A stretch of 64,000 nucleotides of DNA from Magnetococcales bacterium HCHbin5 (GTDB lineage Bacteria; Pseudomonadota; Magnetococcia; Magnetococcales; Magnetaquicoccaceae). Where the stretch lies: contig PEAG01000004.1 in the NCBI GenBank assembly GCA_002753505.1, positions 47,785 through 111,784 of the forward strand, written 5' to 3'. Positions 11,590 through 30,371 of this stretch are shown here, in pieces; the stretch's first letter is position 1, and each line of letters starts with the position of its first letter. The notes beneath the pieces were generated by a model, which was not told the origin of the DNA, did not search any database, and saw nothing but the letters and a program-made list of their open reading frames with translations. A program made the translations under genes and the position numbers.

Positions 11590-11594
11590 CCCTG

Positions 11595-12965: not shown

Positions 12966-12981
12966 GGTGAGCCTCGCTGGG

Positions 12982-13749: not shown

Positions 13750-16322
13750 CGCTGTTCCCCCGTCGGCTGTGCAGCCGGGGAGAGCGCGGAGAGTCGTGCT
13801 GTCGGTCGGTCGTCTGTTTTTTCAGCCACAATGCGCCAATATTTCTCCTCTTTTCTGAGTTGCAACGTTTTGCGCTTTTCCCATCTTTCGTTGGCAGTAT
13901 TGAAAACGATGCGCACAAAGGCGGTGGCCTGGCTGTCGGACGCCACCTCGATGGCCACCTCGGCCAGATTGACCTGCACCCTGGTTGCGGGGTTCAGGAG
14001 GGTGGTGTAGGCCTCCATCCACTGGGTCCGATTCCAGCCATTTTCCGGCAAAAACTGCTCCGAATAGAAGGTCAGGAAGCTCTGGGCATCCTGACGGGCC
14101 CAGGCATCCGCCCACTCCTTGACCATGGTTCGCACCGCCTCTTCCAGCCGTACCGGTGGGGCAGGGGGGGGGGCCGGTGCGGCGGCCGAAAGAGAGTTGG
14201 CGGGCGTGCGGGACGGTACCGGCTGGGCGGTTGCCTCCCCCTCCTCGATCAAACTTTGTTCTCCCTCCGTACTCTCCCGGCTCGGCTTGTTCTGCCTGGC
14301 TGCGGGGGGGGGTGGAGCGGCTGGCTCCGGTTGGGCGTTGCGGACCGCTGCCACAGGGGGGGGCTGGACGGCGACTGTTGGTTGCACGGCGACCGCTGGC
14401 TGCTTGTCCGCCGCTGGCTGCCTGTCCACCGCGGACTGTTTGTCCATGGCCGCCATCGCCTGACGAACCAGTGCATCGATCTCCGCTTGTTTGGGGATAT
14501 TATCCGGGGCAACAGTCGGCTTTTGCGCTGCCTGTGTCGCCGGCAATACCGGTGAGTGTCTGCCGCTCTTCCGGTCGGGTGGGGTGAAAAGGCTCTCCAT
14601 CTCCCGATTCAGAGCCTGATCCGCGGTCGGATTCAGCCGACCGGCTGCCAAGCCATCCGCTGGCGTCTCCATCCGGGGCGGCAGGGAGATTCCCTCCTGC
14701 CATGCCATCACCGACTCCCGGATGGATTGGCTCAAGAGTGGCAGCGGGGCCTCCTGGCTGGCGGTGGGCAGCAGATCCACCCCAAGGGAGACAAAAATCA
14801 TGCCGATGGCATTCTGGAGCTCCGCGTAGGCCTTGTTGCGCTGCAATTGTGACATGATGGCACGGGTGGCGGCCCGGATCTGTTCCAGACGGTTCTGGTT
14901 GGTACTGCCGGCATCCAGGGCCAGATTTTCCTGTATGCGCTGGTCCACCGCGCTTATGTTGCTGAAGCTTTCCAGTCTGCGATTGGCATCCTGATATTTG
15001 CGGTAGCTGATATGAACCTGGGACAGGATCGCCATGTTGAGTGCCACCCGCCGCAGCTGACTGAGAATGGCCTGGTTGTCTGCCAAACGGATGGCGGTGG
15101 GGCCGGCGACCAGCTTCATCAGGTTGCCGGTCACCTGCAGGCCGGCATCCTGCCAATTGGAGTCCATGGCAAAGGAGTTGCTGTCATAGTGGCTGGCTGT
15201 CTTGAACTCCAGTCCTGGCAACATTCTCAACAGGGCCTTGCGGGTTTCGGCGGCACTGATGCGGGATTTGTACAGCTCCATCCGCAATTCCGGTCGATTC
15301 ATCAGGGCCAACTGCTCCATCTCTGCCACGGTGGCCCGGATCGGTGTTACCGTCAAGCTGTTTTCCGGTGGAATGTTCAACTCAAAATCGGTGCCCGGGG
15401 GCAGATTGATCAACAGGGCCAGATTTTTTTTGGCCAGTGCAAGCTCTTCCCGCAGGGTCTCCAACTGTTGCACCACCTCCAACAGCTCCCGTTGAAACCG
15501 CATCATCTCCAGTTGGGGCCGCAGACGCTCCTTTTCCACCTGGTGCGCCACCGCCAGGGCAACCCTGGCCTCTTTCAGTACCGGCTCGATACGACCTTGC
15601 AACTGTTGGGCACTGGCAGCCCGCCAATAGGCGGATTGCACCTCCTGGAACTGGCTGTGGGCCAGTTTGCGCCGGTTCTCCTCTGCCACCAGCACCCGGT
15701 CGGCCGCCTGCTTGGCCTGAAAATAGCTGACACCAAAGTCAAGTACATTCCAGACCAGGCCCAAATCCGCATACTGTTTGTCCCGATCCTGGGAGGTGGA
15801 ATAGCCGGCAGAGCTGGTTTCGGTCGTCAACGAATAACCGCTTGCGGCCTCCACGCTGCTGCGACTGTCAAAGCCGGCCTTGGCGGCCAGGCGCGGCAGC
15901 AGGTCATAGTTGGAGAGATCCACCTCGGTCAGGGCGACCGTTTTTTCCAGTAAATGGACCCGATAGTCCAGATTATATTTGATGGCCCGCGCCACCGCCT
16001 CGTACAGATCGATCGGCTGCGACACAGGCTCCTGGGCGGCGCGTACCGCCTGTTGATCCGCCTGCAACACGGCCGTCAGTTCTTCGGTCGTCAAGGGGTT
16101 GGGGGCGATGGTGCAGGCCAGCAGACCCAACAGGGAGCCTCCCGCCAAAACCAGCCGCAGACCAACGCGCCTGCCAGCAACCGGTCGCTTGGGCAGGCCG
16201 CGTCCACTCGTCCACCGGACAACCGGGCGAAAACAGCGGTTGCACAGGGCACAATAGTGTTGGAAAGAGGAAGGAGGCATGGAGTCTACTGGCAACGGGT
16301 TAAAAGGCGAACCAGGGCGCAT
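13746..16322 (-). CDS. TolC-family outer-membrane factor (lipoprotein-type) with a Pro/Ala-rich linker and a C-terminal NTF2/Cds6-like domain
   Basis: Lipobox LLGLLAC. Two OEP-type repeats with coiled coils (QAVRAAQ...YLPRLAAKAGF...). After about aa 560 comes a Pro/Ala/Gln linker (QPAADKQPAVAVQPTVAVQPPPVA), then VKEWADAWARQDAQSFLTFYSEQF...YWRIVAEK. The exact start is uncertain (16322 or 16280). Confidence 0.75.
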   Translation of the reverse strand: MRPGSPFNPLPVDSMPPSSFQHYCALCNRCFRPVVRWTSGRGLPKRPVAGRRVGLRLVLAGGSLLGLLACTIAPNPLTTEELTAVLQADQQAVRAAQEPVSQPIDLYEAVARAIKYNLDYRVHLLEKTVALTEVDLSNYDLLPRLAAKAGFDSRSSVEAASGYSLTTETSSAGYSTSQDRDKQYADLGLVWNVLDFGVSYFQAKQAADRVLVAEENRRKLAHSQFQEVQSAYWRAASAQQLQGRIEPVLKEARVALAVAHQVEKERLRPQLEMMRFQRELLEVVQQLETLREELALAKKNLALLINLPPGTDFELNIPPENSLTVTPIRATVAEMEQLALMNRPELRMELYKSRISAAETRKALLRMLPGLEFKTASHYDSNSFAMDSNWQDAGLQVTGNLMKLVAGPTAIRLADNQAILSQLRRVALNMAILSQVHISYRKYQDANRRLESFSNISAVDQRIQENLALDAGSTNQNRLEQIRAATRAIMSQLQRNKAYAELQNAIGMIFVSLGVDLLPTASQEAPLPLLSQSIRESVMAWQEGISLPPRMETPADGLAAGRLNPTADQALNREMESLFTPPDRKSGRHSPVLPATQAAQKPTVAPDNIPKQAEIDALVRQAMAAMDKQSAVDRQPAADKQPAVAVQPTVAVQPPPVAAVRNAQPEPAAPPPPAARQNKPSRESTEGEQSLIEEGEATAQPVPSRTPANSLSAAAPAPPPAPPVRLEEAVRTMVKEWADAWARQDAQSFLTFYSEQFLPENGWNRTQWMEAYTTLLNPATRVQVNLAEVAIEVASDSQATAFVRIVFNTANERWEKRKTLQLRKEEKYWRIVAEKTDDRPTARLSALSPAAQPTGEQR

Positions 16323-16466
16323 CGGTCAGTTGTGAGTAAAGCAAAGAAAGTGCCATATATATCCGGGTCGTAAAATTATTTTTTTACCCGGCAAGCCATC
16401 GTGTGCCATAATGGTGCTGACAGTGGTGGTGCGGTTGCGTTGTCCGGCAGTCAGGAGAAAGGTTCC

Positions 16467-19400
16467 ATGGATATTCGGCAGATGGATTCGATTGTCAAAG
16501 GTTTGACCACGCTGTTACGCCTCCAGCCGGGTCGACCGCTGCCGTTGGCGGCGGAGGGGCGGTTTTTCCTGGAGTTGGAGCCTAGAATCCTGTTCGATGG
16601 GGCGGGTTTGTTGCCAGCCGGGTTGGATGATCCTCTTTTTGACGGCCATGGGGCGGAGCCCCCCCAGGATGGTACCCCGCATGGATTGGAGGCGGTTGCA
16701 GAGTTGGCCACCGCCCTGCAGGGACACCTGTTGCCGGAGCAGCCCCTGCGCCGGGAGATTGTGTTTGTCGATCCCCAGGTTGAAACCTATCAAACCCTGC
16801 TGGCCACCGCTGCCCCCGATCGTCTGGTGGTCGTGCTGGATGCTGACCAGGATGGGGTGGAGCAGATTGCCGCCACCCTGGCCCGGCAGGGTTCGTTTGA
16901 TGCCGTTCATATCCTGTCCCACGGCACCACCGCGCAGCTCTCTTTGGGCAACAGCACGCTGTCGGCCGCCAACCTTGACCATTACGAGAAGCTGTTGGCC
17001 CAATGGGGGCAAGCCATCAACCAGACGGGCGATATTCTGATCTATGGCTGTGCGGTGGGAGCCGGGGCAGAAGGGGCCGCCTTTGTGCATCGATTGGCCG
17101 CACTGACCGGCGCGGATGTGGCCGCTTCAGAGGATTTGACCGGGGCGCAAAACAAAGGCGGTGACTGGGATCTGGAGGTGGTCAGCGGCACCATCGATGC
17201 CACAATACCCTTCTCCCCCGAGGGCCAGTCCCACTATGAGGCCATCCTGGCCGCTACCGCCATCAATCTGGCCAGCCTGAATGGTGCGACAGGCTTTCGC
17301 CTGGATGGGGTGACAGCGGGAGATTTGGCGGGCATCTCCGTCCATGCGGCCGGCGACATCAACGGCGATGGCTTTGATGATCTGATCGTCGGGGCCCGCA
17401 ATGCCACCGGCTCCCATGGTGCCAACTCGGGTTCCACTTTTGTGGTATTCGGCCAATCGACCGCCTTTGGTGCCACCTTTGGCTTGAGCAGTCTGAATGG
17501 TGCCAACGGCTTTCGACTGGATGGTGCAGCGGCCGGGGACTATTCCGGTTATTCCGTCAGTGGCATCGGTGATCATAACGGCGACGGTTTTGATGATCTG
17601 CTGATCGGTGCCCACAATGCCTCCGGGGCAGCGGGTGCCAGCTTTGTGCTGTTTGGCCAATCGACCGCCTTTGCCGCCACGGTGGATCTGAATGGCCTGA
17701 CCGGTGCCGATGGCTTTCGCTTGAATGGCGTGACAGCGGGTGACATGTCAGGGAAGTCAGTGAGTGGGGCGGGAGACATCAATGGCGACGGGTTCAGCGA
17801 TCTGCTGATCGGAGCCTACAAGGCGAATCCGAATGGTGAACCCATCAGTCATGGAGTGGGCTATGTGGTCTTCGGCAAAGCGGCGGGTTTCGGGGCCACG
17901 TTTGAGCTGTCCGATTTGAGTGGTGCCAACGGCTTCCGTCTCGATGGGGCGGCGGCTGGTGATTATGCGGGTGTCTCGGTCAGCAATGCCGGTGATATTA
18001 ACGGCGATGGGTATGACGATCTGGTGATTGGGGCCCACTGGGCGAGCCAGGGGGCCGTCACCTACGCTGGGGCCAGCTTTGTGGTCTTTGGCAAAGCGGC
18101 GGGCTTCGGTGCAACCCTCAATCTCTCGACTCTGGATGGCAACAGCGGTTTTCGTCTGGATGGTGTGGTCGGGGGGGTGCCGGGTGATCAGGCGGGCCGT
18201 TCGGTCAGCGCGGCGGGGGATTTCAATGGCGATGGCTATGATGATCTGCTCGTCGGTGCCTACAAGGCGGATCCCAGTGGCGGTGCGGACGCTGGTTCCA
18301 GCTATCTGGTCTTCGGCAAGGCTGCCGGTTTCAGTTCGGTCCTGAACCTTTCCAGCTTGAGCAGCACAAGCGGTTTTCGGCTGGATGGCGGGGCGGCTGG
18401 TGATGAATCGGGCCGTTCGGTATCGGGGATTGGGGATGTCAACGGCGATGGTTTTGCGGATCTCATCATCGGCGCGCGTTATGCGGACCCGACGGCGGCC
18501 AATGCCGGGGCCGCCTATGTGATCTTTGGCCAATCGTCGGGTTTCAGCACCATCAGCCTCTCGGCAAACAGCTTTACCGGCTATTACCTGAACGGCCTGG
18601 CCGCCTCTGATTTTGTCGGTATTGCGGTCAGCGGGGCCGGGGATGTCAATGGGGATGGCTTTGGCGATTTTATCATTGGGGCAACAGGGGCGGATCCGGG
18701 AGCCAGAAACAGTGCGGGCTCCAGTTATCTGCTGTTTGGCAGCGATGCCACCGGTGCGGTGACCTTTTCCGGCACCAGCGGTGCGGATACGCTCACTGGG
18801 GGCACGGCCGGTGCGGAGCGGTTTGTGGCCGGTGCCGGCAACGATACCATGACAGGTGGTGGCGGAGCGGACATTTTTCATGGTGGTGCCGGAGACGATA
18901 CCATCACCGTTGCCGATCTGACCTTTCAATGGGTGGATGGGGGGCGTGGCAGTGACACGCTGGCACTGTCGGGCTCCGGCATGCAGATGAACCTGACCAC
19001 CCTGCGGGGCAGATGGAGTGCCATTGAGATCATTGACCTGACCGGCAGTGGCAACAACCTGTTGACGGTGACAGCATTGGATGTACTGAACCTGTCTGAC
19101 AGCAGCAATACCCTGACGGTCAACGGCAATGCGGGGGACAGTGTGGTGATGGGCAGTGGCTGGACCAGTGGTGGCACGGTGGGCGGTTACCAGATCTATA
19201 CCCAGGGCCAGGCAACCCTGCGGATCAGTGCTGCCACCGGTGCCACGGCTGCGGTTCCCACTTTGACCGCCTTTGCCGCCCCCGCAGGCACGGTCAATGA
19301 AGACAGCCAGGCAACCATCACCCTGGCCGATTTGAAGGCGGTCGGCAACGAAGCGGACGCAGACGGTACGGTGGACGGCTTTGTCATCAAGGCTGTCAGC

Positions 19401-20975
19401 AGCGGGACACTGTGGATCGGTACCAGTTTGGCAGCCGCAACCCCCTGGGCAGCGGGCAGCAATGAGACGGTGGACGCCACCCACAACGCCTATTGGACCG
19501 GGGCGCAGGATGCCAATGGTACACTGAACGCCTTCACAGCGGTCGCAAAAGACAATGCCGGGACAGAATCCAGCACGGCGATACAGCTGCAGATGAGCGT
19601 CACGGCCGTCAACGACAGCCATACCGGCGGTGCCAGCATCAGCGGCACCGCCACCCAGGGTCAAACCCTGACCGCCACCCATACCCTGGCCGATGTGGAT
19701 GGTCTGGGTGCCATCAGTTATCAGTGGAGGGCCAACGGCAGCAATATCAGTGGCGCGACCGGCTCCACCTTTGTTCTGACTGAGGCCCAGGTGGGCAGTA
19801 CCATCACCGTTGTACTCAGTTATACCGATCTGCAAGGGACGGCTGAAAGTGCGACCAGTAGCGCAACCGCAACGGTAGCGGCCCTGGCTTCGCCCCCCAG
19901 CTCTTCCGGGACACCTGCGCCTGCACCCGCACCTGCAAGCCCAACCACCGGTGGCAGTGCAACAGAGGCGGCAACACCGGTTGCCGATTCAGGCGGTTCG
20001 GGCAGCACTGCCACGGCGACAGCGGTGACGGTTGTGCAGACCACGGCCGCTGCGACCGGATTGGATGCGGTGGCTGGCAGCGGTTATGGTGGTTTGATCA
20101 CGGCGGCGAGTGGCACCGCACCAGCCCCTGTCAATCCGGTGATCGAACAGCTTTCTGCGGTCAATGCACTGCTGCTGACCGATCTTTCATTGTCGGTGGT
20201 CGCTGTTATCCCCACGGATACGGTCTTTGCGGCGGTCAGCGGTGATGGGCAGGGCGCAGCAGGCACCCTGGTGCTGGCCAACCCCTCCAATGCCAGCGGT
20301 CGACTCTCCGGCAGCGGTTTGGCGGAGACAGGCGGAGGGAGTGGAACGGGAGAGCATGGAGCCGGGGATATGTTTATCCATTCAGGCCAGGAACGGGAGG
20401 ATGGCTTTTTCAGCAAAAAACGAATACCCGGCATGGAACTGCTGGGGGATGGTCTGATCAAGGTGGCTGGTTTTATCGGGTTGGGTCTGGAAAACGGTGG
20501 GCCTGTCAAGGTGGAAGGGTTTGGGGGCAGCGGCGGCGATGAGCAGGGCATGGCTGTCGAGGGTTTCGGCGGTCGTGCTACGACCGAACGGCCAGTGGCG
20601 GTGGAGGGATTTGGTGATGTGGGCGCGGGGGAGGCCAATCCGGCTGCCCCCGATGGGTTTGGCGATGCAACCGCCGTGAACCATCGGCAGCAGGAGGACG
20701 AGGATGAGCTGTTGATCCAGCAGGAACCCGCCACAGAGCCGGTGAGTGCTTCGGCCCAGGGCTCCGCCGAGGCGGTTGGGGCAAAGCAGGAGGCGGAAGA
20801 AAACCAGGATGCTGTCGGCGACGAGGATGACAGCAGCGCACAGGTGCCGGAAAACCAGCCGACAAGGGCAGGAAAGCCCGCATTTACGGCCCAGCTCTCC
20901 CCGTTTGGTGCCAAGGGATTTCATCAGGCCAGCATGGCACTGCTCAAAAAAATGATTGAGTCTCCGGTGAAATAG
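16467..20975 (+). CDS. giant secreted DUF4347 / FG-GAP (7-blade) / RTX-repeat adhesin-like protein
   Basis: ATG at 16467 with AGGAGA about 8 nt upstream. LEPRILFDGA opening and a DUF4347-like block (VFVD...HILSHG...LLIYGC...GGDWDLE). Seven GDxNGDG[FY]xDLxxGA FG-GAP repeats. RTX nonapeptides (GGAGNDTMTGGGGADIFHGGAGDDTI). Ig/cadherin-like VNDxxTG modules. Low-complexity acidic tail. Confidence 0.85.
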   Translation: MDIRQMDSIVKGLTTLLRLQPGRPLPLAAEGRFFLELEPRILFDGAGLLPAGLDDPLFDGHGAEPPQDGTPHGLEAVAELATALQGHLLPEQPLRREIVFVDPQVETYQTLLATAAPDRLVVVLDADQDGVEQIAATLARQGSFDAVHILSHGTTAQLSLGNSTLSAANLDHYEKLLAQWGQAINQTGDILIYGCAVGAGAEGAAFVHRLAALTGADVAASEDLTGAQNKGGDWDLEVVSGTIDATIPFSPEGQSHYEAILAATAINLASLNGATGFRLDGVTAGDLAGISVHAAGDINGDGFDDLIVGARNATGSHGANSGSTFVVFGQSTAFGATFGLSSLNGANGFRLDGAAAGDYSGYSVSGIGDHNGDGFDDLLIGAHNASGAAGASFVLFGQSTAFAATVDLNGLTGADGFRLNGVTAGDMSGKSVSGAGDINGDGFSDLLIGAYKANPNGEPISHGVGYVVFGKAAGFGATFELSDLSGANGFRLDGAAAGDYAGVSVSNAGDINGDGYDDLVIGAHWASQGAVTYAGASFVVFGKAAGFGATLNLSTLDGNSGFRLDGVVGGVPGDQAGRSVSAAGDFNGDGYDDLLVGAYKADPSGGADAGSSYLVFGKAAGFSSVLNLSSLSSTSGFRLDGGAAGDESGRSVSGIGDVNGDGFADLIIGARYADPTAANAGAAYVIFGQSSGFSTISLSANSFTGYYLNGLAASDFVGIAVSGAGDVNGDGFGDFIIGATGADPGARNSAGSSYLLFGSDATGAVTFSGTSGADTLTGGTAGAERFVAGAGNDTMTGGGGADIFHGGAGDDTITVADLTFQWVDGGRGSDTLALSGSGMQMNLTTLRGRWSAIEIIDLTGSGNNLLTVTALDVLNLSDSSNTLTVNGNAGDSVVMGSGWTSGGTVGGYQIYTQGQATLRISAATGATAAVPTLTAFAAPAGTVNEDSQATITLADLKAVGNEADADGTVDGFVIKAVSSGTLWIGTSLAAATPWAAGSNETVDATHNAYWTGAQDANGTLNAFTAVAKDNAGTESSTAIQLQMSVTAVNDSHTGGASISGTATQGQTLTATHTLADVDGLGAISYQWRANGSNISGATGSTFVLTEAQVGSTITVVLSYTDLQGTAESATSSATATVAALASPPSSSGTPAPAPAPASPTTGGSATEAATPVADSGGSGSTATATAVTVVQTTAAATGLDAVAGSGYGGLITAASGTAPAPVNPVIEQLSAVNALLLTDLSLSVVAVIPTDTVFAAVSGDGQGAAGTLVLANPSNASGRLSGSGLAETGGGSGTGEHGAGDMFIHSGQEREDGFFSKKRIPGMELLGDGLIKVAGFIGLGLENGGPVKVEGFGGSGGDEQGMAVEGFGGRATTERPVAVEGFGDVGAGEANPAAPDGFGDATAVNHRQQEDEDELLIQQEPATEPVSASAQGSAEAVGAKQEAEENQDAVGDEDDSSAQVPENQPTRAGKPAFTAQLSPFGAKGFHQASMALLKKMIESPVK

Positions 20976-20991: not shown

Positions 20992-22698
20992 TCAGCCACC
21001 GGATCCGGCGGTTGCTGCGGGCTGCTCCTCCTCTTTTCCGGTTTTTTCAGTGGCCTGTTTTTTCCCGGCAGCCGTTGGTGTCGGCTGCTGACCTTGTTCC
21101 GGCAGCAAATATTTGCGATACTCGGCCCGCCTTTCGTCCGCCAGCAGCATGACCAGCAGCGACTGGATCAGGTTGGCGATGGCCTCTGTCTGCTCGGACA
21201 GGGTATGGTTGGAGATGCTGCTCTGCTGGATCAGATGATAGTTGGCTGTCGCCATATCCCGCAGCATGGCCAGCTCCCCTTGCAGATCGCTGATCAATTC
21301 AGCCTGCTTGAGGGAGGCGGTCTGTACCTCGCCGGACCACCCGGTCAGCCGGGTTGTCCCCTCTGTGACAAAGAGGATGTTTTCAGCGGCCTGCTTGACA
21401 TCATCCCGCCCCGTTTTGATCTCCCGGTAGGCACTCTCCAGCAGGCTGACCACCCCGTCAATCAGCTGGATAATGTTTTGACTGAGCCCCTTGATCTCAT
21501 CGGTAAAGATGGCAAAACCCCGGCTGGCCTCCTGACGGGAGGCCTCGGCACTGGCACTGGTTGCCAACAGGTTGACCTGCATGGTGCTGTTGCTGAGAGC
21601 CTGCATGTTGCGTTGCATCTGCTCGCACAGACCGACCGAACGATTGGCAACTTCTCGAAATTTCATGATAAAACCATCTGCATTTCTGGCTTTTGTTTCG
21701 GTTTCCCTGGAAAGCGCGCTTGTCTCTGCCATGATGCGGATGGTGTTGGCGGTCAGGCCCTCCAGGATGGTCAGGGCACCGCTTGAGGCACGCATGGACT
21801 CCTGTCGGCTGTCATCATTGCTGGTGAGGTGTACGAAGGTGCTGCCAATCTGTTGGGCCGAATTGAGCAAAAAATCGGCCTTTTTGCGAAACGGTTCTGC
21901 CAGGTTGCGCAGGGTGTCCACCTGCTGTCGCAAACGGCGCAGATGGGTGCTGTGAATGGCAACGACCAGGAAGAGACCACCCACAACAAAAAGGGCCATG
22001 ATCAGGACAAAGGCAACCCAGAGTAGATAATGGGCCTTGTATGCCTCGGATGTCAGGTTGCGGGAGAGTTCCCGGGTGGCATCAAACGCCTGTTTCAATT
22101 TGTTGCCCAGCCGCTTGGTCTCATCATCCAGCGATGAGGTGTTGGCACTGAGATTTTTTAAATATTCCTGTTCCGCTTCCGCCAGTGTCTGGTTGCCGTT
22201 GCCGGTGATAATGCCGGCTTTGGTCAGAAAGCGATATTTGTATATGTTGCGAATGATATTGCCGGCCAAATGTTCAAAGTCGGCATGTATCTTTTGAAAG
22301 TCGCTGATAATGCTTTTGACCTGTTCCAACTGCCGTCTGTCGGCGTCCGATTGGGCGTTTTCCATCCCCTTCTGGGCCAAATATCGGGCCTCAACCAGCA
22401 CATTGGTCAGTCGGCGGCCCGAATTGGCGAAGGCCTCGTTGGCCACCTCAAACTTGCCCCGATCGTCGGTTTCACCAAACAGAAACGCCTCGTTGATGTG
22501 CAATGTCTGATCCAGTTGTTGGCGGGTGGCCTCCGAAACGGCCAATGCCAGGGCAATGTCTTCCCGATCCAGCTTTGCCAACCGGTTTTCCAACTGGCGG
22601 TTCATATGGATGCCAAACAGCCCCATGGCCAACGTGGTGAGTCCCAGGAACAGAAACAACACGGTAAGCTGGCCCGACAATTTCATATTTTTTAACAT
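20992..22698 (-). CDS. methyl-accepting chemotaxis protein (divergent signalling hairpin)
   Basis: Two TM spans flank a helical periplasmic domain. The MCP tip-like segment NLLATSASAEASRQEASRGFAIFTDEIKGL compares with the canonical [31 protein letters not shown]. It lies 16-31 nt downstream of the channel gene. The start is either ATG 22698 or TTG 22713. Confidence 0.75.
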   Translation of the reverse strand: MLKNMKLSGQLTVLFLFLGLTTLAMGLFGIHMNRQLENRLAKLDREDIALALAVSEATRQQLDQTLHINEAFLFGETDDRGKFEVANEAFANSGRRLTNVLVEARYLAQKGMENAQSDADRRQLEQVKSIISDFQKIHADFEHLAGNIIRNIYKYRFLTKAGIITGNGNQTLAEAEQEYLKNLSANTSSLDDETKRLGNKLKQAFDATRELSRNLTSEAYKAHYLLWVAFVLIMALFVVGGLFLVVAIHSTHLRRLRQQVDTLRNLAEPFRKKADFLLNSAQQIGSTFVHLTSNDDSRQESMRASSGALTILEGLTANTIRIMAETSALSRETETKARNADGFIMKFREVANRSVGLCEQMQRNMQALSNSTMQVNLLATSASAEASRQEASRGFAIFTDEIKGLSQNIIQLIDGVVSLLESAYREIKTGRDDVKQAAENILFVTEGTTRLTGWSGEVQTASLKQAELISDLQGELAMLRDMATANYHLIQQSSISNHTLSEQTEAIANLIQSLLVMLLADERRAEYRKYLLPEQGQQPTPTAAGKKQATEKTGKEEEQPAATAGSGG

Positions 22699-22729
22699 AG
22701 CGGTCACTTGCAAAAAGTGTGGACAGTGA

Positions 22730-24853
22730 TCAAAATTTTTCCCGGAATAAAATCAGTACAACGCCCAGAACCAACAGCGGATAGATTGCCATGGCGACCA
22801 GGTCCAGCTTTTGGGCGGCATCCACCCTCTTGATGTTCACCAGATAGTTGACAAAGGCTGTTTCAACGATGGTGAGAAAAAACAACACGTAGGATGAAAG
22901 AAAAAAAATATCCCCGCGTACCAGATAGCCTACCCCCAATTTGTTGACATTATGATAGGCCATGGCACTCAACATGGTGGTGATTCCCACGGAGTAGCGG
23001 GTGGAGAGTACGTCATAGCCTATGCTGAAAATCACATAAGCCGTGGTCACCAGCACCAGAAGCGGCAACAGGGTGATCATGTAACTGCCCCATTTGCGTT
23101 CCAGCAAGACCTGGTAATTGTATTGAGAGTGATCCAGCACAAACAGTTTATTGTCAAATTTAGGGTTTCGATAACTCCAGAGAAAATCTTTTTGAGTGGT
23201 AAACTGCATATGATTGATATCCTTCCAGGGTCCAAAGTCCAGCTTTCTGGTCAGGAAAGAGTCATCGTCAATATCGGTGACCAGGATCAAATCCTCGTTG
23301 GTTTTTGCTTTGGGTTTGATGCGGATTTTTAATGTCTGTCTGTCGAACGGATAGTCATGCAAAGGGAAAAAGTCGGCCATACGGGCAGAGACGATATAAG
23401 AGATAAAATTATTATTCGTATTCTTGTCAAAATATTTTTCCCGGACGGCGGCGGTCAACACCTTGCCGTAGGTCATTTCAAAGTCCAGATTTTTATTCTT
23501 GCCCGGATCCCAGCGGAACCAGAGGTTAAAGTTGGCGACAAATTGGCCGGCCACCGGATCAAACGACTCCACCTCGTTCAGGTGTATGCCGGTGTAGACC
23601 ACCGTCGCCCGTTTCATGAACTGGTTATCCATGAAGAATATGTCGGAATTTTTTTGCCTGATTTTGGCCAGCTCCTGATATTTGACGTGGGTCAGTTGAA
23701 AACGGGCGGGGATGTATCGGCCATGTTTCACCTGTCCCACCCACAAATTGCGACGGCTGGAACCCAGCTCATTGAAATAGAGGTCACCCGCAATGCTGGG
23801 CATGGCGTCCTGCTGGGTCACCATTTTGCGCAACAGGTTGCGCAGGTCGGTGCCCTCCGGGCCGGCTTGACGGATGGCATGGGCGATCAGGCGGGTGGCT
23901 TCATAGGTGTAGGTGGAGACCCAGTCCGGCTCTTGCTGAAATTCCCGCAGATAATCAACCTGATAATTTTTGGAAGCCTCGCCAAACAGGCTGGGCAGGT
24001 AGGGGGTGACGGCATAGACATCCTCTGCATAGATGCCTGCATGACGAATAAACTGGTTGCCACCCAGGCTTTCACCCCCGATCACATCGGTTTCCACCCC
24101 ATTTTTCCGCAAAAATTTAATCATTCTGGCCGCATTGACATAGTTCATGGCCAGAAAAATCACATCGGCGTCCGACAACGCCTTGAGCCGACTTTTGAGC
24201 AGATCAATGTTGGCCTGCCGGTAATCCAACTCCACGGCCACCGACGGAACCACTTCATTGACGGCCATTTCTGCCGCGAAATATTCCTTCAGGGAGCGGC
24301 CATAGGGGGTCTTGTCGTTGATAATGGCCACATTTTTCCGATCCAGTCCGTGCAGGATATAGTTGGCCAGAAAACGGGCCTGATAAAAATCATCGGGCAT
24401 CAGGCTGAAGGCCCAATCATTGTTGGCGGTCAAGGCGGGCAGGGTGGCGGAGGGTGAGATAAAGGGAATTTTATGGGCTTTGTAAATTTCGCCACCCGCA
24501 ATGGTCGCCATACTGAAATAGTGGCCGACAACCGCCACAAGATTGGGTACTGCCATCAATCTTTTGGCACTTCTTTCTGCGTAGGTGCTGACATTGGCCG
24601 CACTCCGGTCGTCGGATACGGCCAGTTTGAGTTCATATTTTTCCAACTCTCCGCTCTGGTTGATATCCTGGATGGCCAACGCCACCCCCCGTTGCATGGA
24701 GAGTCCCACATCCTTGAACGGTCCAGACATGGGAGCGGCCAGGCCAACATGCAGCACCTCCTTTTGTTGGGAGAGTGCCAGCCCCAGATAGGCCATGCTC
24801 GCCAACAGCACCAGCACACCCACCACGAGCAGGAAAAATTTTATCCTGGCCAT
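22730..24853 (-). CDS. type-I periplasmic binding protein (LivK/Peripla_BP_6-like) fused to a prokaryotic pentameric ligand-gated ion channel
   Basis: aa 30-380 resemble Leu/Ile/Val-type PBPs (VGLAAPMSGPF...GVALAIQDIN...VVGHYFS). aa about 400-707 carry the Cys-loop-region signature YPFDRQTLKIRI, a pre-M1 LERKWGSY, and four TM helices with a short M3-M4 loop. Confidence 0.8.
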   Translation of the reverse strand: MARIKFFLLVVGVLVLLASMAYLGLALSQQKEVLHVGLAAPMSGPFKDVGLSMQRGVALAIQDINQSGELEKYELKLAVSDDRSAANVSTYAERSAKRLMAVPNLVAVVGHYFSMATIAGGEIYKAHKIPFISPSATLPALTANNDWAFSLMPDDFYQARFLANYILHGLDRKNVAIINDKTPYGRSLKEYFAAEMAVNEVVPSVAVELDYRQANIDLLKSRLKALSDADVIFLAMNYVNAARMIKFLRKNGVETDVIGGESLGGNQFIRHAGIYAEDVYAVTPYLPSLFGEASKNYQVDYLREFQQEPDWVSTYTYEATRLIAHAIRQAGPEGTDLRNLLRKMVTQQDAMPSIAGDLYFNELGSSRRNLWVGQVKHGRYIPARFQLTHVKYQELAKIRQKNSDIFFMDNQFMKRATVVYTGIHLNEVESFDPVAGQFVANFNLWFRWDPGKNKNLDFEMTYGKVLTAAVREKYFDKNTNNNFISYIVSARMADFFPLHDYPFDRQTLKIRIKPKAKTNEDLILVTDIDDDSFLTRKLDFGPWKDINHMQFTTQKDFLWSYRNPKFDNKLFVLDHSQYNYQVLLERKWGSYMITLLPLLVLVTTAYVIFSIGYDVLSTRYSVGITTMLSAMAYHNVNKLGVGYLVRGDIFFLSSYVLFFLTIVETAFVNYLVNIKRVDAAQKLDLVAMAIYPLLVLGVVLILFREKF

Positions 24854-24906
24854 ATCATTCCACGTTAAAGCACTGAATTAATATAATGATACCCAAGAGA
24901 GAGGTA

Positions 24907-25437
24907 TCAGGGATCCGTCTCTTCCCGATTGGTATTGTCCGGTCGGTTGGAGGAGTGGTCCGGGTCGGGATTGACAATGCACTGGCCGTGGCCATCCCAC
25001 AGGCGAATCGTTAAACCGGCATCCGGCGTATAACACTGCACCGAAGTCGTATCATCTCCGGCAGCGATCTCCTGCGGATCGGTTCCAAACCAGCCAAAAC
25101 GGCCCCGATAGCCCTGACCACTGGTCGTTATCGCTCCCGTTGCGTTGCTCTCCTGCGCAGCGGCGGTTGTCTTGCGCGGCGTGGCTGTCGGTTGGGTCGG
25201 GGCGGCCTGGGGTTCAACACCCTGTGACAGCCCGGGGGCAAGTGAAACGGAGAGCAGCAACCATAGAAGCCACCGGCTGTTTCGTCTCCCGGATACGCCG
25301 TTTGATAAAAAGGCACCGGCAGCCGAACGATCGTGAATATGCCCCTGATACATCCCCATGGAACGCTCCCGTGATGCCATACCATAAACCGTTGGGAGCC
25401 GATCAAGGTTGGGTCCGACTATCCAACAGAGGCCCAA
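24907..25437 (-). CDS. small secreted hypothetical protein (possible Tat/Sec signal)
   Basis: GRRNSRWLLWLLLSVSLAPGLSQG signal-like segment, then a roughly 100-aa mature part with 2 Cys. It ends 53 nt upstream of the channel gene on the same strand. The start is ambiguous (25437, 25380 or 25359). Confidence 0.4.
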   Translation of the reverse strand: MGLCWIVGPNLDRLPTVYGMASRERSMGMYQGHIHDRSAAGAFLSNGVSGRRNSRWLLWLLLSVSLAPGLSQGVEPQAAPTQPTATPRKTTAAAQESNATGAITTSGQGYRGRFGWFGTDPQEIAAGDDTTSVQCYTPDAGLTIRLWDGHGQCIVNPDPDHSSNRPDNTNREETDP

Positions 25438-25769
25438 ACCTCATCAAGCATTGGAATGTCCAAGCAATATTCATGCTAAAAACAGTGTGATTTGCTTTTG
25501 CATCTATTGCCGCTCTTTTGTTATCCTGTATTAAAAACAAACATTTTTTTGTTTTGTACGGTGGATGTATTCATGGCGGAAGTGTTCAATTCCGGCCGTT
25601 GGGTGAGGTGGATGGCAGGGAGGCAAATGCAGGTATGGCTGTTGCATCTGCTTGGCATTGGAGTGGATATTATAACAGTGGCTGTGTATTTCGGGTTTTA
25701 CATGCGTGCCGCAGTTTGTTACAGTTTATCGCTGCAGGGTATGCACTCGTCAGGGCAGGGAGGATCCCA

Positions 25770-28214
25770 ATGGTCAGGCAGATATTTCGCACAGTGCTGG
25801 CGGAAAATGGCGTGTTAAAACCGGATTTTCTGTCGCTTTGGGTTTTGATTGTCGGGTTGGCCATCAGTGTGGTGACGGTTGTATCCCTGCAACACAGCAT
25901 CAGGGATGCAACCAACCAGACAATGACCTTGGCAATCAACACGGCTCGTGCCAACTTTTCCAAGGATGTTGCCTTCCGGCAGTGGGCCACCCGCCATGGT
26001 GGCATTTATGTCCCTGTTGACGAGCGCACACCGCCCAACCCCAACCTGGCACACATCCCGGAGCGTGACATCCGTACCCCCTCGGGTAAACAGTTAACCC
26101 TCATGAATCCCGCCTACATGCTCCGTCAGATCATGAATGAGTATTCCGATCTGTATGGTGTTCGGGGCAAGATCACCTCCCTGAAACCCCTGAATCCCAT
26201 CAATACCCCCGATCCCTGGGAAGAGCGGGCACTGCACCTGTTCGAGGCTGGAAAAGAGGAGATCATGGAGGTGGTGGGCGATGGTCTGGATGCCTCCCTG
26301 CGACTGATGCGCCCCATGATCACCCGTGAAGGTTGCCTGAAATGTCATGCCTTTCAGGGGTACAAGGTGGGCGATGTGCGTGGTGGCATTGGTGTGCGTG
26401 TGCCGTTGAAAAGTTTTCGGGAGACAGAGGCACTTGTTCTGAGCAATATCAAGTTTGTGCATGCCTTTTTCTGGGGAGTCGGGATGTTTTTGCTCGGTCT
26501 CTACTATCAGATGGCGCGTCAACGCATGCGGGAACAGGTTGCGGCAGAACTTGCCTTGCGCAAGGAGCGGGATGCCATCCGGGCGGCCAAAGAGTCTGCC
26601 ATACAGGCGCAGTTTCTCAGCGACCAGGCCCTGGAGTTGGCCAAGGCGGGCCACTGGTGTATTGATTTCAGCGAGGGAGATGAATATTACATCTCGTCGG
26701 AGCGCACGGTTACCATTTTTGGTGACCCGCCACGGGACGATTTGCGTTACCACCTCATGAACGATTGGTATGTCAACATTGAAGCGGCTGACAAGGCTGC
26801 TGCGGAGGCGACACTGGCCAATTATTTGGCCGCTCGCGATGGAAGCCAGCCGAAATACGACATGATTCACCCGTACAAGCGTCCCGGTGATGGCCGTGTC
26901 GTTTGGATTCACGCCTTGGGACATATGGTGCGGGATGCAGAGGGTCGGCCGGCTCACATGTATGGTGTGGTGATGGATGTTACCGACAGCAAACTGGTTG
27001 AGAATGCGATTCGGGAGGCGAAGGAGGCTGCCGAGCGGGCCAGCAGGGCCAAAGGTGAGTTTTTGGCCAATATGAGCCACGAAATCCGTACACCCATGAA
27101 TGTGGTGTTGGGCATGTCGGACGTGTTGCTTGAAACCGGTCTTGATGCAGAGCAACGCCGTATTGTGCAGACCATGAGCCGTTCGGGCAAGGCATTGATG
27201 GGTGTGATCAGTGACGTGCTGGACTTTTCCCACATCGAATCAGGGCGTTTCATGTTGTCCGAACAGCCGTACTGTCCAAGACAGACGGTCGAGGAGATCA
27301 TGGATTTTATGCGATGGTCCGCTGAGGAAAAGGGGTTGATGTTGTCAGGGGATTTCGCTTCCGGTATACCGGAAGCGGTCATGGGAGACCACGGACGGCT
27401 GCGACAGGTGTTGATCAACTTGTTGGGGAACGCCATCAAGTTTACCCGGCATGGAGAGGTCTCTGTGCGGTTGGCACCCCATCCCCAGGAGCCGGAGAGC
27501 CTCCTGTTTTGCGTCTCTGATACCGGGATCGGCATCGCTCCAGAACAGCTGGAAAATATTTTTCAGCAGTTTACCCAGGCAGATTCCAGTATTACCCGTC
27601 GGTATGGCGGTACCGGACTGGGGCTGGCGATTTCCCAAAGGTTGGTGGAACTGATGGGGGGTCGCATTTGGGTGGAGAGCCAACTGGGGCAGGGGAGCCG
27701 CTTTTTTTTCAGCCTGCCATCTCGTTTGGCACCGGTTGCGGTCCCGTTGGTTACCGCATCGGAACAGGTGGTCGGGGCGTTCACCAGAGAGCTGCGCATT
27801 TTGATTGCAGAGGATGCACCAGAAAACCAGGCTCTGATCCAGGCCTATTTAAAAAAATCGCCGCACCATCTTGTCTTTGTCAATGATGGGGCGGAGGCGG
27901 TGGCACAGGTGAAAAAGGAGCTGTTTGACCTGGTGCTGATGGATATCCAGATGCCCAACATGGATGGGTATGCGGCCACTCGTGCCATACGTCGCTGGGA
28001 GAGGGAGGAAGGGGGAGATCCCTTGATCATCATGGCACTGACTGCGCATGCTTCCATCGGCAAGAGAGAGGAAAGTTTGGCGGTCGGGTGTAACGACCAT
28101 CTGACCAAACCCATCAAGAAGCAGACTTTACTGGATGCCATTCAGCGGGTTGCGGAATGGCTTGACAGCCAAAGGGGCGTGGTGGCAAGCCAGCCACTCC
28201 AGGGAGAGCCATAG
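25770..28214 (+). CDS. hybrid sensor histidine kinase with a periplasmic DUF3365 (c-type heme) sensor, a PAS-like region, HisKA/HATPase and a C-terminal receiver
   Basis: ATG 25770 with GGGAGGA 6 nt upstream. Heme motif CLKCH within a DUF3365-like block. H-box [15 protein letters not shown]2 box [10 protein letters not shown]. Receiver [14 protein letters not shown]...KP. Confidence 0.85.
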
Positions 28215-28268: not shown

Positions 28269-30371
28269 ATGAGTCAACCGGGTGAACAAAAATCTTTGGG
28301 CGGTTTGCTGAAATTGCTGGCTCCTCTGTTGGTGGCGATTCCCGCTGTCGCCATTTTGTCGTGGACCTTCTATTTCACCAGCAACCAGTTGGAGCAGTGG
28401 GCCGAGTCAAGTCTGGATAAGATTGGCGAACAGGTCATTGAAAAGACGGAAAATTTCCTCAATTCAGCCGCATTTTCCGCCGACTACAATGCCACCTGGA
28501 TCGCAGCCAACGCCAATACGGAAAAATTTACTGAACATTTTTACCAGATGGCGCAAAAGCAGATGGCCCATTTTCCCCACTACAAGTTGATCTATTTTGG
28601 GGACCAGTCCGGCAACCATTGGTTGAACAAAAGGGATCCGGACGGCAAACTGCGGGCTCGTGTGGTGCAGCGGCTGGATGACTCTGCTGCCAGCCGGGAA
28701 CTGCTGACCAGGGCCAGCGCGCTCTCTGAAACAGATCCGGCTGAGCGGGAGTCACGCCGACGTTTGCTGGCTCCCCTGCTGCGGACAGCCTGGCACGAAC
28801 AGGACGGAACCGGTCGATTGCAATTCAGCTATTGGGATCCGCTCAAAGCGTATGATCCCCGCCTGCGGCCCTGGTATCGGGGGGCTGAGGCGATGAAGGG
28901 CAAATCCTGGATTGATGTTTACAGCTGGGAAAACAAGTTTCAGGACAAGGTTGAGTACGAGGCGGGCATTACAGTCTCCTATCCTGTCGTTCAGCAAGGC
29001 AGAGTGCTGGGCGTTGTTGGCATTGATCTGGTGCTGGGTGCCATCTCTGAATTTCTCAGTGAGCTGCAGGTTGCTGCCCATGGTCGTGCCTTCATCTTTG
29101 ATTCCCAGGGTCGGGTTGTCGGGATGCCGCATCAGAGTCAACTGCTGCGCCCCTCGCGGACGGAGGCCAACGGGGTGGCACGTTTGCGGCTGCATGATTT
29201 GCAGGATGTGGCGGTGGCGACCTCCTACGAAACTTTGCGCAACCAGTTGGGTGTGACGCAAAAAAATGGGCAGTCTGCTGGCCCGCTGGGGCAGTTTTCC
29301 GCACAGGTGATCCGTTTTTTTGTGCAGGGTGAAGCGTTTCTTGGGTTTTTTCGTCCCCTGGACCCGGACTTTCAGTTGGATTGGTATGTGGGCGTCCTTA
29401 TGCCCGAGTCGGATGTCAAAGGGGCGTTGGAAGAGCAGTTCCGCTGGGTCTTTATCGGTATTTTTGTGGTTGTTCTGCTCTTTTTTGCGCTGATTCCGCT
29501 GCACTTGAAGGCGGAAAAAGATCGCCGCTGGATTCAAAATGCCTTTTCCAAGTATGTTTCACCCAACCGCGTGGCCTATTTGTTGAAAAATCCAGACCAT
29601 TTGGCGTTGGGTGGCGAGTACCGGGACTGCTCCTTTGTCATGACCGACTTGGCAGGTTTTACCGCCATGATGGAGCAATGTACGGTGGAGCCGCAAGAGA
29701 TCGTGCATACCTTGAACGAGTACCTGGACGGAATGGTGGGTATCGCCTTCAAGCATGAAGGAACGTTGGATCGCATTGTCGGGGATGCGGTCGCCGTACT
29801 GTTTTCGGCTCCGGTTGTTCAGGAGGATCATGCCCAGCGGGCAGTGAATTGTGCGCTGGAGATGGATCGATTTGCCACACAATTTGCCTTGGAAAAGCAG
29901 CGGCAGGGGTTGCCTTTCGGCTTTACCCGGATTGGCGTCAATTCGGGCCGGGTTTTGTTGGGCAATTTTGGTGGCAAGCTGGTTTTTGATTATCGGGCTT
30001 TGGGGGATCCCATCAATACCGCCTCCCGGTTGGAGAGCATCAACAACCAGTTGGGTACCCGGGTGTGCGTGAGCGGTGAGACAGTCTCCCGGGTAAGCGG
30101 TTTTTGCGGCCGTCTGGTGGGTCATTTGATCCTGAAGGGGAAAGAGAACGGCATCCATGCCTATCAGCCGTTACCAGAGGAGGCGAGGGATACCCCTCTG
30201 GTGCGCTGTTATGAATCGGCCTACCAGTTGATGGCCTCGAAAGATTCCCATGCCTTTGCCGCCTTTGCCCAGGCTCTTGCAAAATGGCCGGAAGATCCTT
30301 TGTTGCGGTTTCATTATGCACGCCTGTTGGCGGGACAGAGTGGAGAGAGTATCTTTTTTACAGACAAATAA
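28269..30371 (+). CDS. membrane-bound class III adenylate/guanylate cyclase with an extracytoplasmic Cache-like sensor
   Basis: TM, a roughly 350-aa periplasmic domain, TM, then cyclase motifs (FVMTDLAGFT, GDAVAVLF, RIGVNSGRVLLGNFGG, YRALGDPINTASRLES). Confidence 0.85.
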   Translation: MSQPGEQKSLGGLLKLLAPLLVAIPAVAILSWTFYFTSNQLEQWAESSLDKIGEQVIEKTENFLNSAAFSADYNATWIAANANTEKFTEHFYQMAQKQMAHFPHYKLIYFGDQSGNHWLNKRDPDGKLRARVVQRLDDSAASRELLTRASALSETDPAERESRRRLLAPLLRTAWHEQDGTGRLQFSYWDPLKAYDPRLRPWYRGAEAMKGKSWIDVYSWENKFQDKVEYEAGITVSYPVVQQGRVLGVVGIDLVLGAISEFLSELQVAAHGRAFIFDSQGRVVGMPHQSQLLRPSRTEANGVARLRLHDLQDVAVATSYETLRNQLGVTQKNGQSAGPLGQFSAQVIRFFVQGEAFLGFFRPLDPDFQLDWYVGVLMPESDVKGALEEQFRWVFIGIFVVVLLFFALIPLHLKAEKDRRWIQNAFSKYVSPNRVAYLLKNPDHLALGGEYRDCSFVMTDLAGFTAMMEQCTVEPQEIVHTLNEYLDGMVGIAFKHEGTLDRIVGDAVAVLFSAPVVQEDHAQRAVNCALEMDRFATQFALEKQRQGLPFGFTRIGVNSGRVLLGNFGGKLVFDYRALGDPINTASRLESINNQLGTRVCVSGETVSRVSGFCGRLVGHLILKGKENGIHAYQPLPEEARDTPLVRCYESAYQLMASKDSHAFAAFAQALAKWPEDPLLRFHYARLLAGQSGESIFFTDK

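Follow-up and report, generated by a model that had tools for sequence, protein, structure and literature searches.

An ion channel gene and an MCP-like transducer gene form a conserved pair in magnetotactic bacteria

Introduction

Why a bacterium should encode a ligand-gated ion channel immediately upstream of a chemoreceptor is the question raised by a stretch of contig PEAG01000004.1 of Magnetococcales bacterium HCHbin5, 64,000 nt in length and referred to here as the window, in whose positions coordinates are given. On its minus strand, a gene for a small secreted acidic protein (24907..25437; 176 aa as the maximal open reading frame (ORF), with a TTG start) is followed by a gene for a fusion of a type I periplasmic binding protein (PBP) with a pentameric ligand-gated ion channel (pLGIC) (22730..24853; 707 aa), and then by a gene for a transducer resembling methyl-accepting chemotaxis proteins (MCPs) (20992..22698; 568 aa from the ATG at 22698, or 573 aa from a TTG at 22713). 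A first-pass annotation had proposed that the three genes are co-transcribed and that channel and chemoreceptor may respond to the same stimulus, adding that no pLGIC-chemotaxis module was known to have been described. We report here that the channel and MCP genes are adjacent in every related module with usable flanking DNA, in two phyla, and we discuss what this pairing may mean.

Prokaryotic pLGICs, e.g. GLIC, ELIC and DeCLIC, are of major importance for the structural understanding of neurotransmitter receptors, yet next to nothing is known of their physiological role in bacteria. PBP-I::pLGIC fusions were published by Tasneem, Iyer, Jakobsson & Aravind in 2005 (PMC549065), who also proposed a role of prokaryotic pLGICs in chemotaxis from domain and operon context, and who described pLGIC operons with stand-alone PBP-II or Cache proteins as well as fusions to MCP-N and Cache sensor domains. 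This role has been a conjecture since then, and the gene context of pLGICs was not discussed by Jaiteh et al. (2016). Full-text literature searches returned no description of a pLGIC–MCP operon or of a Magnetococcales pLGIC. The statement that no such module had been described therefore stands for the operon, but not for the idea behind it, the chemotaxis proposal dating from 2005 (PMC549065). What is new here is the dedicated MCP partner of the PBP::pLGIC, whereas the fusion and the conjecture on chemotaxis were known. The pairing constitutes genomic evidence tying one pLGIC family to the chemotaxis machinery, and it names a partner to test.

Conservation of the channel–MCP gene pair

A scan of one genome per species yielded 21 Magnetococcales loci, 20 of them with DNA downstream of the channel gene. 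The MCP gene lies directly 3' of the channel gene in all 20 of these species-level loci, across which identity drops from 85% to 38% for the channel and from 72% to 22% for the MCP. The two genes are separated by 4-76 nt, the exception being a gap of about 290 nt in XS-1 (L019). Eight further modules were found from the MCP side (L031-L036, L038 and L040; L038 is from assembly GCA_054920795.1), and L037, in which the contig is cut at the MCP start, was left out of the module count. In total, 28 of 28 related modules with usable flanking DNA show the adjacency, without a counterexample, and most of their gaps measure 4-60 nt. This includes all six distant members with usable context, in which the MCP gene lies 18-107 nt downstream of a gene for a PBP::pLGIC of 703-807 aa. 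Likewise, close matches to the MCP family that have enough contig context each share their contig with a channel gene. The adjacency is far beyond chance. According to the first-pass annotation, its proposal would be refuted if the adjacency were conserved in no relative; the opposite was found, and in two phyla.

The partnership also appears to be nearly exclusive. Searched with HMMER against 1.84 billion proteins, the periplasmic domain of the MCP was found in 28 representative clusters only, all of the same architecture, and full-length channel homologues in a collection of 5.8 billion proteins came from Magnetococcales wherever their source was named. Module hosts comprise freshwater and marine Magnetococcales and multicellular magnetotactic Desulfobacterota. 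Among the modules found from the MCP side, L035 belongs to the marine magnetococcus HHB-1 (its accession prefix is that of the paper describing HHB-1), L040 lies on a JPDT01 contig of Ca. Magnetomorum HK-1 (Desulfobacterota), and the source of L036 is JGI sample 3300028595, the metagenome of a single consortium of multicellular magnetotactic bacteria, likewise Desulfobacterota (PMC10705294). The GC content of L036 and L040 (36-37%) fits a host outside Magnetococcales. Some metagenomic hosts and that of L038 excepted, every host identified is magnetotactic.

Channel and MCP also share their history. Their distance matrices are strongly correlated (Mantel r = 0.93, with none of 5000 permutations as high), and clustering by either set of distances yields the same five groups. 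Pairs of paralogous modules are present together on a single contig (L001) and in a single metagenome-assembled genome (MAG; L002 and L015), each module with its own MCP partner and its own type of upstream small ORF, which indicates that the module was duplicated as a unit.

An adjacency of this kind could be inherited synteny or an artefact with no functional meaning. Most loci do come from one order, many of them from MAGs of related organisms, and some wider synteny exists in the form of a giant RTX gene and of HlyD-like genes. Nevertheless, the genes flanking the module vary among loci and from clade to clade around an unbroken pair, the pair is found in Desulfobacterota at 36% GC among unrelated neighbours, and two paralogous copies occur in one genome. 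Base composition moreover speaks against contamination of the cross-phylum loci by Magnetococcales DNA. The data thus contradict an explanation by mere synteny, which we regard as very improbable.

The linkage does not extend to pLGICs in general. No MCP neighbour was found at the three distant stand-alone pLGICs that are the next-closest relatives (P0190, P0191 and P0194), nor at the PBP-only or other loci L022-L030. A general linkage of pLGICs with MCPs was therefore rejected, and by the loci covered here the linkage is specific to this PBP::pLGIC family; further PBP::pLGICs occur in Bradyrhizobium and Magnetospirillum. At one of these loci (L028:1-6795), a distant stand-alone pLGIC gene is located between two genes for Ser/Thr protein kinases, with a gene for an inward-rectifier-type K+ channel nearby. 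A different arrangement was encountered in a Thiotrichales MAG (L022:4758-7904, plus strand) and in proteins P0039-P0044, which are about 1050-1150 aa long and in which a PBP and half of an extracellular domain of the pLGIC type, namely its first half, are joined to an MscS channel and a domain for binding cyclic nucleotides (cNMP). The PBP and extracellular part of these proteins is 28% identical to residues 30-528 of the window channel. This sensor part has hence been transferred to a channel of another type.

Gene spacing and the transcription unit

The gene coordinates of the first-pass annotation and the gaps of 53 nt and of 16 or 31 nt were all reproduced from the ORFs. The spacer between the small ORF and the channel gene occupies 24854..24906 (53 nt; the fold of this stretch is about -10.7 kcal/mol), and that between the channel stop and the MCP ATG occupies 22699..22729 (31 nt, or 16 nt with the alternative TTG start), both on the minus strand like all features of the module given below. 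The ATG at 22698 is the likely start of the MCP gene, since every homologue of the MCP partner aligns from the sequence MLKNMKLS that begins there. The gene ends in convergence with a giant plus-strand gene, the stop codon of which is 16 nt from its own, so that the three-gene unit ends at the MCP.

No terminator had been seen between the three genes. This is borne out for the gap between channel and MCP, in which a consensus scan detected neither a promoter-like nor a terminator-like site. For the gap between the small ORF and the channel it needs qualification, in that one weak hairpin (24909-24887; 8 pairs, 3 of them G-C, with a poor T tail) lies over the stop codon of the small ORF. It is absent in the closest relatives L001 and L002, and the scan returned 8 terminator-like sites in the region, compared to 6.2 expected from shuffled sequences. 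A terminator at this place was rejected, the hairpin being neither above the shuffle expectation nor conserved. The view that the three genes represent a compact same-strand unit is thus supported, and co-transcription of the module genes is predicted from the size of the gaps and the absence of recognisable signals.

The channel

In the AlphaFold2 (AF2) model, the channel protein begins with a hydrophobic helix (residues 2-28, 24770..24850), which is either a signal peptide or a membrane anchor. It is followed by a periplasmic binding domain of the Leu/Ile/Val-binding-protein type (residues 32-390, 23684..24760), identified by the Pfam domain Peripla_BP_6 (residues 35-376, E 8.6e-42, above cut-off), by matches in the PDB (4gnr, E 1.8e-25; LivK, 2lbp, E 8.8e-18), and by the AF2 model, in which the predicted local distance difference test score (pLDDT) is high over residues 32-390. 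In a residue-level alignment, S79, T102, Y150 and E226 of LivK correspond to S114, T137, Y184 and E261 of the channel, which are invariant across 25 members of the channel family, and LivK Y202 aligns to N237, next to which Y238 is invariant. These five LivK residues we take, from the LivJ/LivK literature, to be those that bind the amino and carboxylate groups of the ligand. Since the residues for binding the main chain are invariant in the channel family, the ligand of the binding domain is likely to be an alpha-amino acid or a close analogue.

Over its C-terminal 316 aa, the channel protein is similar to GLIC, GlyR and GABA-A chains in the PDB. As a single sequence it matches a GLIC–GlyR chimera (phmmer against the PDB, E 2.6e-10), and a profile of the channel family reaches E 1.1e-18, with GLIC at about 1e-10; the profile also matches proteins annotated with PF02931/PF02932. 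Generic models are less decisive, NCBIfam LGIC_1 giving E 2.4e-14 with a score under its curated cut-off and Pfam Neur_chan_memb only E 0.63 on the window channel, and pLGIC membership was set via the PDB and profile searches. The extracellular beta-sandwich (residues 405-586, 23096..23641) was defined by alignment and by the AF2 model, which places beta strands over this whole segment at low confidence (pLDDT about 40-65). It is the most conserved part of the channel, with 69% mean pairwise identity, and its Pro-loop YPFDRQ is represented by Y501, P502, F503, D504 and Q506, invariant in 25 channel sequences. The channel domain M1-M4 (residues 588-704, 22742..23092), defined by PDB and profile matches and by AF2, has transmembrane helices at 588-608, 616-641, 645-673 and 677-704 in the model. 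Numbered by alignment with GlyR and GLIC, M2 has an invariant Arg at 0' and an invariant Leu at 9', and there is no Glu at -1'. The transmembrane domain is closest to those of the anion-selective GlyR, GABA-A and GluCl, and anion selectivity of the channel is predicted from the lack of the -1' Glu.

The MCP-like partner

The periplasmic part of the partner (residues 35-228, 22015..22596) is a four-helix bundle according to the AF2 model and the family alignment, with the invariant residues F83, G94, K136, H138, F157, E193 and L197 and the motif E-K-x-H-x-x-F/Y-E-H. The second transmembrane helix (TM2; residues 229-252, ending near 256 in the AF2 model; 21943..22014) leads via a short linker of about 12-15 residues, modelled at low confidence up to about residue 267, to a cytoplasmic coiled-coil hairpin (residues 268-531, 21106..21897). 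The Pfam model MCPsignal (PF00015) is borderline, scoring 34.4 bits with the full-length protein, compared to a cut-off of 34.6, and 35.1 bits with the cytoplasmic fragment. Homology itself is clear: Tsr of E. coli is matched with E 2e-30 by a profile built from 19 members of the family, the best Foldseek matches are Tsr structures (TM-score 0.79 to 1qu7), and the AF2 model (mean pLDDT 78.6) features two long helices, 268-388 and 393-531. Between family positions 258-522 and Tsr 258-522, the tip is the only place with an indel, and alignment to the 44H receptor TM1143 requires extra residues. The heptad class, left for assignment by the first-pass annotation, is accordingly 36H-like, on the strength of this alignment to Tsr (36H) together with the AF2 helices.

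The hairpin tip (residues 366-415, NLLATSASAEASRQEASRGFAIFTDEIKGL, 21454..21603, by alignment to Tsr) had been described as clearly divergent, and the sequence quoted for it was correct. The divergence includes a one-residue deletion opposite Tsr G390. Of 34 family members, 33 have a spacer of 5 aa from the equivalent of R388 to G-F, whereas the 102 ordinary MCPs that the same search retrieved have one of 6 aa without exception; the deletion (33/34 versus 0/102) is thus a hallmark of the partner family. The residues corresponding to E385, R388 and F396 of Tsr are still present.

Two further features set the window protein apart from ordinary chemoreceptors. A HAMP domain between TM2 and the methylation helices is common in MCPs, though not universal. 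None (PF00672) was detected by domain search in any member of the partner family, whereas most ordinary MCP matches carry one. A scan for the methylation consensus [ASTG][ASTG]xx[EQ][EQ]xx[ASTG][ASTG] left the helical arms of the window protein, and those of most of the 37 sequences in the family, without a match; the four with matches have them in the C-terminal tail only (three) or belong to the deep-branching L019 (one), as against at least one match in 97 of the 102 ordinary MCPs. With neither HAMP nor methylation consensus, the window partner is best described from its sequence as MCP-like rather than as a textbook methyl-accepting protein.

Loss of methylation sites was also considered as a trait of the whole family and rejected. 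The distant partners L035 (HHB-1), L036 (consortium metagenome), L038 and L040 (HK-1) retain canonical methylation-helix motifs, e.g. QAASLEESTAAL and NAATSEESSAAS, and keep the shortened tip and the periplasmic signature motifs. By these motifs, the ancestral partner is recognisable as a bona fide MCP, and the freshwater Magnetococcales clades, including that of the window, as having lost the methylation consensus while keeping hairpin length, tip and sensor domain. Within the MCP family, mean pairwise identity amounts to 41% in the periplasmic domain and to 46% in the tip, compared to 18-20% in the cytoplasmic arms. This pattern is the inverse of that of ordinary chemoreceptors. With its shortened tip, its lack of HAMP and, in some clades, its lack of methylation sites, the partner represents a new type of chemoreceptor, which bears on the tolerance of arrays for atypical members and on adaptation.

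These losses also lend themselves to another explanation, by which the MCP-like protein of the window clade is an accessory subunit of the channel, serving, for example, as an anchor to the cell pole or the array or as a modulator of gating, in which case the module would act on motor speed or membrane potential through ions alone. Clades A and B have lost the methylation consensus, and to this are added the missing HAMP, the weak conservation of the arms and the shortened tip; besides the borderline MCPsignal score of the window protein, some relatives have no recorded MCPsignal match at all. A precedent is provided by the sodium channel NaVBP of Bacillus pseudofirmus OF4, which is reported to co-localise with MCPs at the cell poles and to influence chemotaxis (Ito 2004; Fujinami 2007; PMC2556953, PMC549065). 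NaVBP is likewise an ion channel tied to MCPs and chemotaxis, but is voltage-gated rather than ligand-gated. To our knowledge, it is not genetically linked to a specific MCP. In the present family, however, the tip is the best-conserved cytoplasmic part, with its E385, R388 and F396 equivalents kept, and hairpin length is held to the Tsr register despite sequence drift, both of which fit a need to reach the CheA/CheW baseplate. A purely accessory role is for these reasons a poor candidate, though one that merits some weight.

Several peculiarities of individual partners were observed. A peptidoglycan-binding domain (PG_binding_1) is inserted within the periplasmic domain in L038 (4001-5914), L039 and L034. 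Clade B partners end in a conserved W-P-x-G (alignment A2, columns ~520-530), and those of clade A feature [DE]-E-R-R directly after the hairpin; neither ending is like the NWETF pentapeptide that tethers CheR. The partner gene at L005 (10058-11693) is split over two frames, due to a frameshift (pseudogene) or to an assembly error. Finally, protein P0180 (799 aa, JGI) is a direct fusion of a PBP (Peripla_BP_5/6) with the signalling domain of an MCP and thereby unites in one polypeptide what the idea of a binding protein with a chemoreceptor assigns to two.

A proposed sensory cassette

Strict pairing, co-duplication and a conserved, nearly exclusive sensor domain argue for a functional unit of sensor and transducer. 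The reading that we favour, with some reservation, is that magnetotactic bacteria have in this module a conserved sensory cassette, the genes of which are probably co-transcribed, with the channel and its dedicated MCP-type transducer as its core and the two coupled in the following manner. Ligand would close the tethered binding domain of the channel, and this closure would gate the channel and lead to ion flux or a change in membrane potential. The same closure event might be read by the periplasmic bundle of the partner, much as loaded binding proteins dock on Tar, Trg and Tap, and the partner would relay the signal via its tip to CheW/CheA-type machinery and on to the flagellar motor. In this scheme, physical contact between channel and MCP and output of the partner to Che proteins are both putative.

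Channel and partner could also be mechanistically independent receptors, each with its own ligand, that act in parallel on ion homeostasis or membrane potential and on chemotaxis, the operon serving their joint expression in a shared niche. The four-helix-bundle sensor of the MCP is indeed complete and could bind a ligand directly, its fold being like that of ligand-binding domains such as PcaY_PP; the distant members resemble ordinary methyl-accepting receptors, and the interaction between channel and MCP is so far something that we infer. Co-regulation alone, however, rarely keeps an exceptionless 1:1 adjacency across two phyla, changing flanks and duplication. Moreover, the sensor domain is essentially found only beside this channel, and its conservation far exceeds that of the signalling arms, whereas in independent chemoreceptors the opposite is the rule. 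We consider independence unlikely, if a serious alternative.

Various observations weigh against the coupled cassette, starting with the partner itself. In the window clade, the loss of methylation consensus and HAMP together with the shortened tip means that this protein may not couple to CheA/CheW or adapt in the manner of MCPs. As to contact between channel and MCP, it is not obvious how the symmetry of a pentamer would match that of a dimer (or trimer of dimers), AF2 confidence is low for the extracellular domain of the channel, and a correlation between trees is expected for any linked, vertically inherited gene pair and does not prove interaction. At the level of the locus, the long channel–MCP gap of L019 is AT-rich and could hold its own promoter, and the 64 kb of the window contain no che genes. 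The small ORF, lastly, is missing in the most divergent modules (L016, L019, L033, L035 and L036), and at some loci it overlaps a called minus-strand gene. For its absence from the most divergent modules we treat the small protein as accessory; judging from its distribution, it is a frequent accessory, present in most Magnetococcales, that lies outside the core.

It is tempting to go beyond the cassette and to speculate that channel and chemoreceptor are obligate physical partners in a hybrid electro-chemical complex, in which binding of an amino acid would open the channel and switch the MCP together, so that membrane-potential and Che signals would be integrated at the motor. We hold this extension to be possible but doubtful. 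If true, it would represent an excitable steering pathway in bacteria and the first physiological role for a prokaryotic pLGIC.

Relation to described systems

In the E. coli pairs MBP–Tar, RBP/GBP–Trg and DppA–Tap, the ligand is taken up by a periplasmic binding protein, which in its loaded state is recognised by a chemoreceptor with a four-helix bundle. There, the binding protein is a free one that also serves an ABC transporter, whereas in the present module the binding domain is joined covalently to an ion channel and the adjacent gene encodes the receptor, with docking putative. In the htrI-sopI and htrII-sopII operons of haloarchaea, a sensory rhodopsin (SR) is co-transcribed with its cognate MCP-type transducer (Htr). 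As in the present case, the sensor is a membrane protein of an ion-translocating family and each paralogous sensor has its own transducer. The similarity ends with the proteins themselves, since SR is a photoreceptor with seven transmembrane helices that makes contact through transmembrane helices with an Htr bearing HAMP and methylation sites, while the present module combines a ligand-gated pentameric channel with a partner that lacks HAMP and has a shortened tip. A cognate sensor and an MCP-type transducer are thus encoded and inherited as a pair, as in SR–Htr (28/28 modules, co-duplication, Mantel r = 0.93).

The fusions described in 2005 (PMC549065) have the same domain order as the window channel, i.e. 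an N-terminal type I binding domain followed by the pLGIC extracellular domain and the domain of four transmembrane helices. They differ in that no neighbouring full-length MCP with a signalling domain was reported for them, ion flux alone being envisaged to steer motility, whereas a dedicated MCP gene is the invariable partner in the present module. DeCLIC resembles the window channel as a prokaryotic pLGIC with an extra periplasmic regulatory domain. Its N-terminal lobes, however, are calcium-binding domains, not of the binding-protein fold, and it has no known partner receptor; its physiological role has been described as poorly characterised (PMC9897478, PMC12664993).

The small secreted protein

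The real start of the small protein is probably the ATG at 25380 or 25359, and a signal-peptide-like stretch (RWLLWLLLSVSLAPGLSQG) is evident. Its conserved core (24979..25071) consists of an E-I-x-P-G-D-D-type motif, here QEIAAGDD, followed by C-x(n)-LWD-x2-G-x-C, and in the alignment of the window clade (A5) E, I, D, C, W, D and C are invariant. The protein has no Pfam and no NCBIfam match. A same-strand small ORF lies directly upstream of the channel gene in 18 related modules, encoding a signal-peptide-like stretch and then an acidic, Gly/Pro-rich protein of about 100-150 aa. The motif E-[IVL]-x-P-[GDE]-D is found in 14 of these 18 proteins, at a density of 7.1 per 1000 aa compared to a background of 0.05, a figure that is indicative only, the motif having been defined post hoc. 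The small proteins of clades A and B are linked by position, signal peptide, acidity and this short motif, and show no BLAST similarity to each other. The small protein is probably a periplasmic accessory factor or a ligand.

Genomic context

Within the 64-kb window, no che genes, other MCPs or second module were found. Neighbouring genes in other genomes point to motility and excitability. In HHB-1 (L035:588-6903, plus strand), genes for a NavMs-like voltage-gated sodium channel (NaV; E 8e-85), the PBP::pLGIC (807 aa), the MCP and a GluR0-like ionotropic glutamate receptor (E 1.5e-52) follow one another on one strand. In XS-1 (Ca. Magnetocorallium paracelense, L019:8001-16246, plus strand), PBP::pLGIC and MCP are followed on the same strand by Ion_trans::PilZ, a nucleotide cyclase and cNMP_binding::FliG_C. 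NaV homologues are present in the module gene cluster of two marine magnetococci, a FliG-like gene adjoins L033, and a flagellin gene adjoins L040. Together with the occurrence of the module in magnetotactic hosts only, among those identified, the channel, cyclic-nucleotide and FliG-like neighbours hint at a steering along chemical gradients that is linked to this lifestyle. The arrangement in HHB-1 assembles three classes of "neuronal" channels around one chemoreceptor.

In the window, the module is located between genes of other kinds. Upstream of the module and divergent from it are genes for a hybrid histidine kinase (25518-28214, plus strand; Tll0287-like, PAS, HisKA, HATPase and REC domains) and a dCache adenylate/guanylate cyclase (28269-30371, plus strand); the module has homologues of the cyclase in its vicinity in L002, L018 and L019 as well, and the kinase is found again in L003 and L006. 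The gene convergent with the MCP encodes a 1524-aa DUF4347/FG-GAP/RTX protein (16401-20975, plus strand), beyond which lies a cluster of the type I secretion or efflux type (9472-16322, minus strand) with three HlyD-type genes, a Peptidase_M50–HlyD fusion and OEP+Cds6_C. In 7 loci the giant RTX gene is next after the module, and in 9 the module is flanked by HlyD-like genes.

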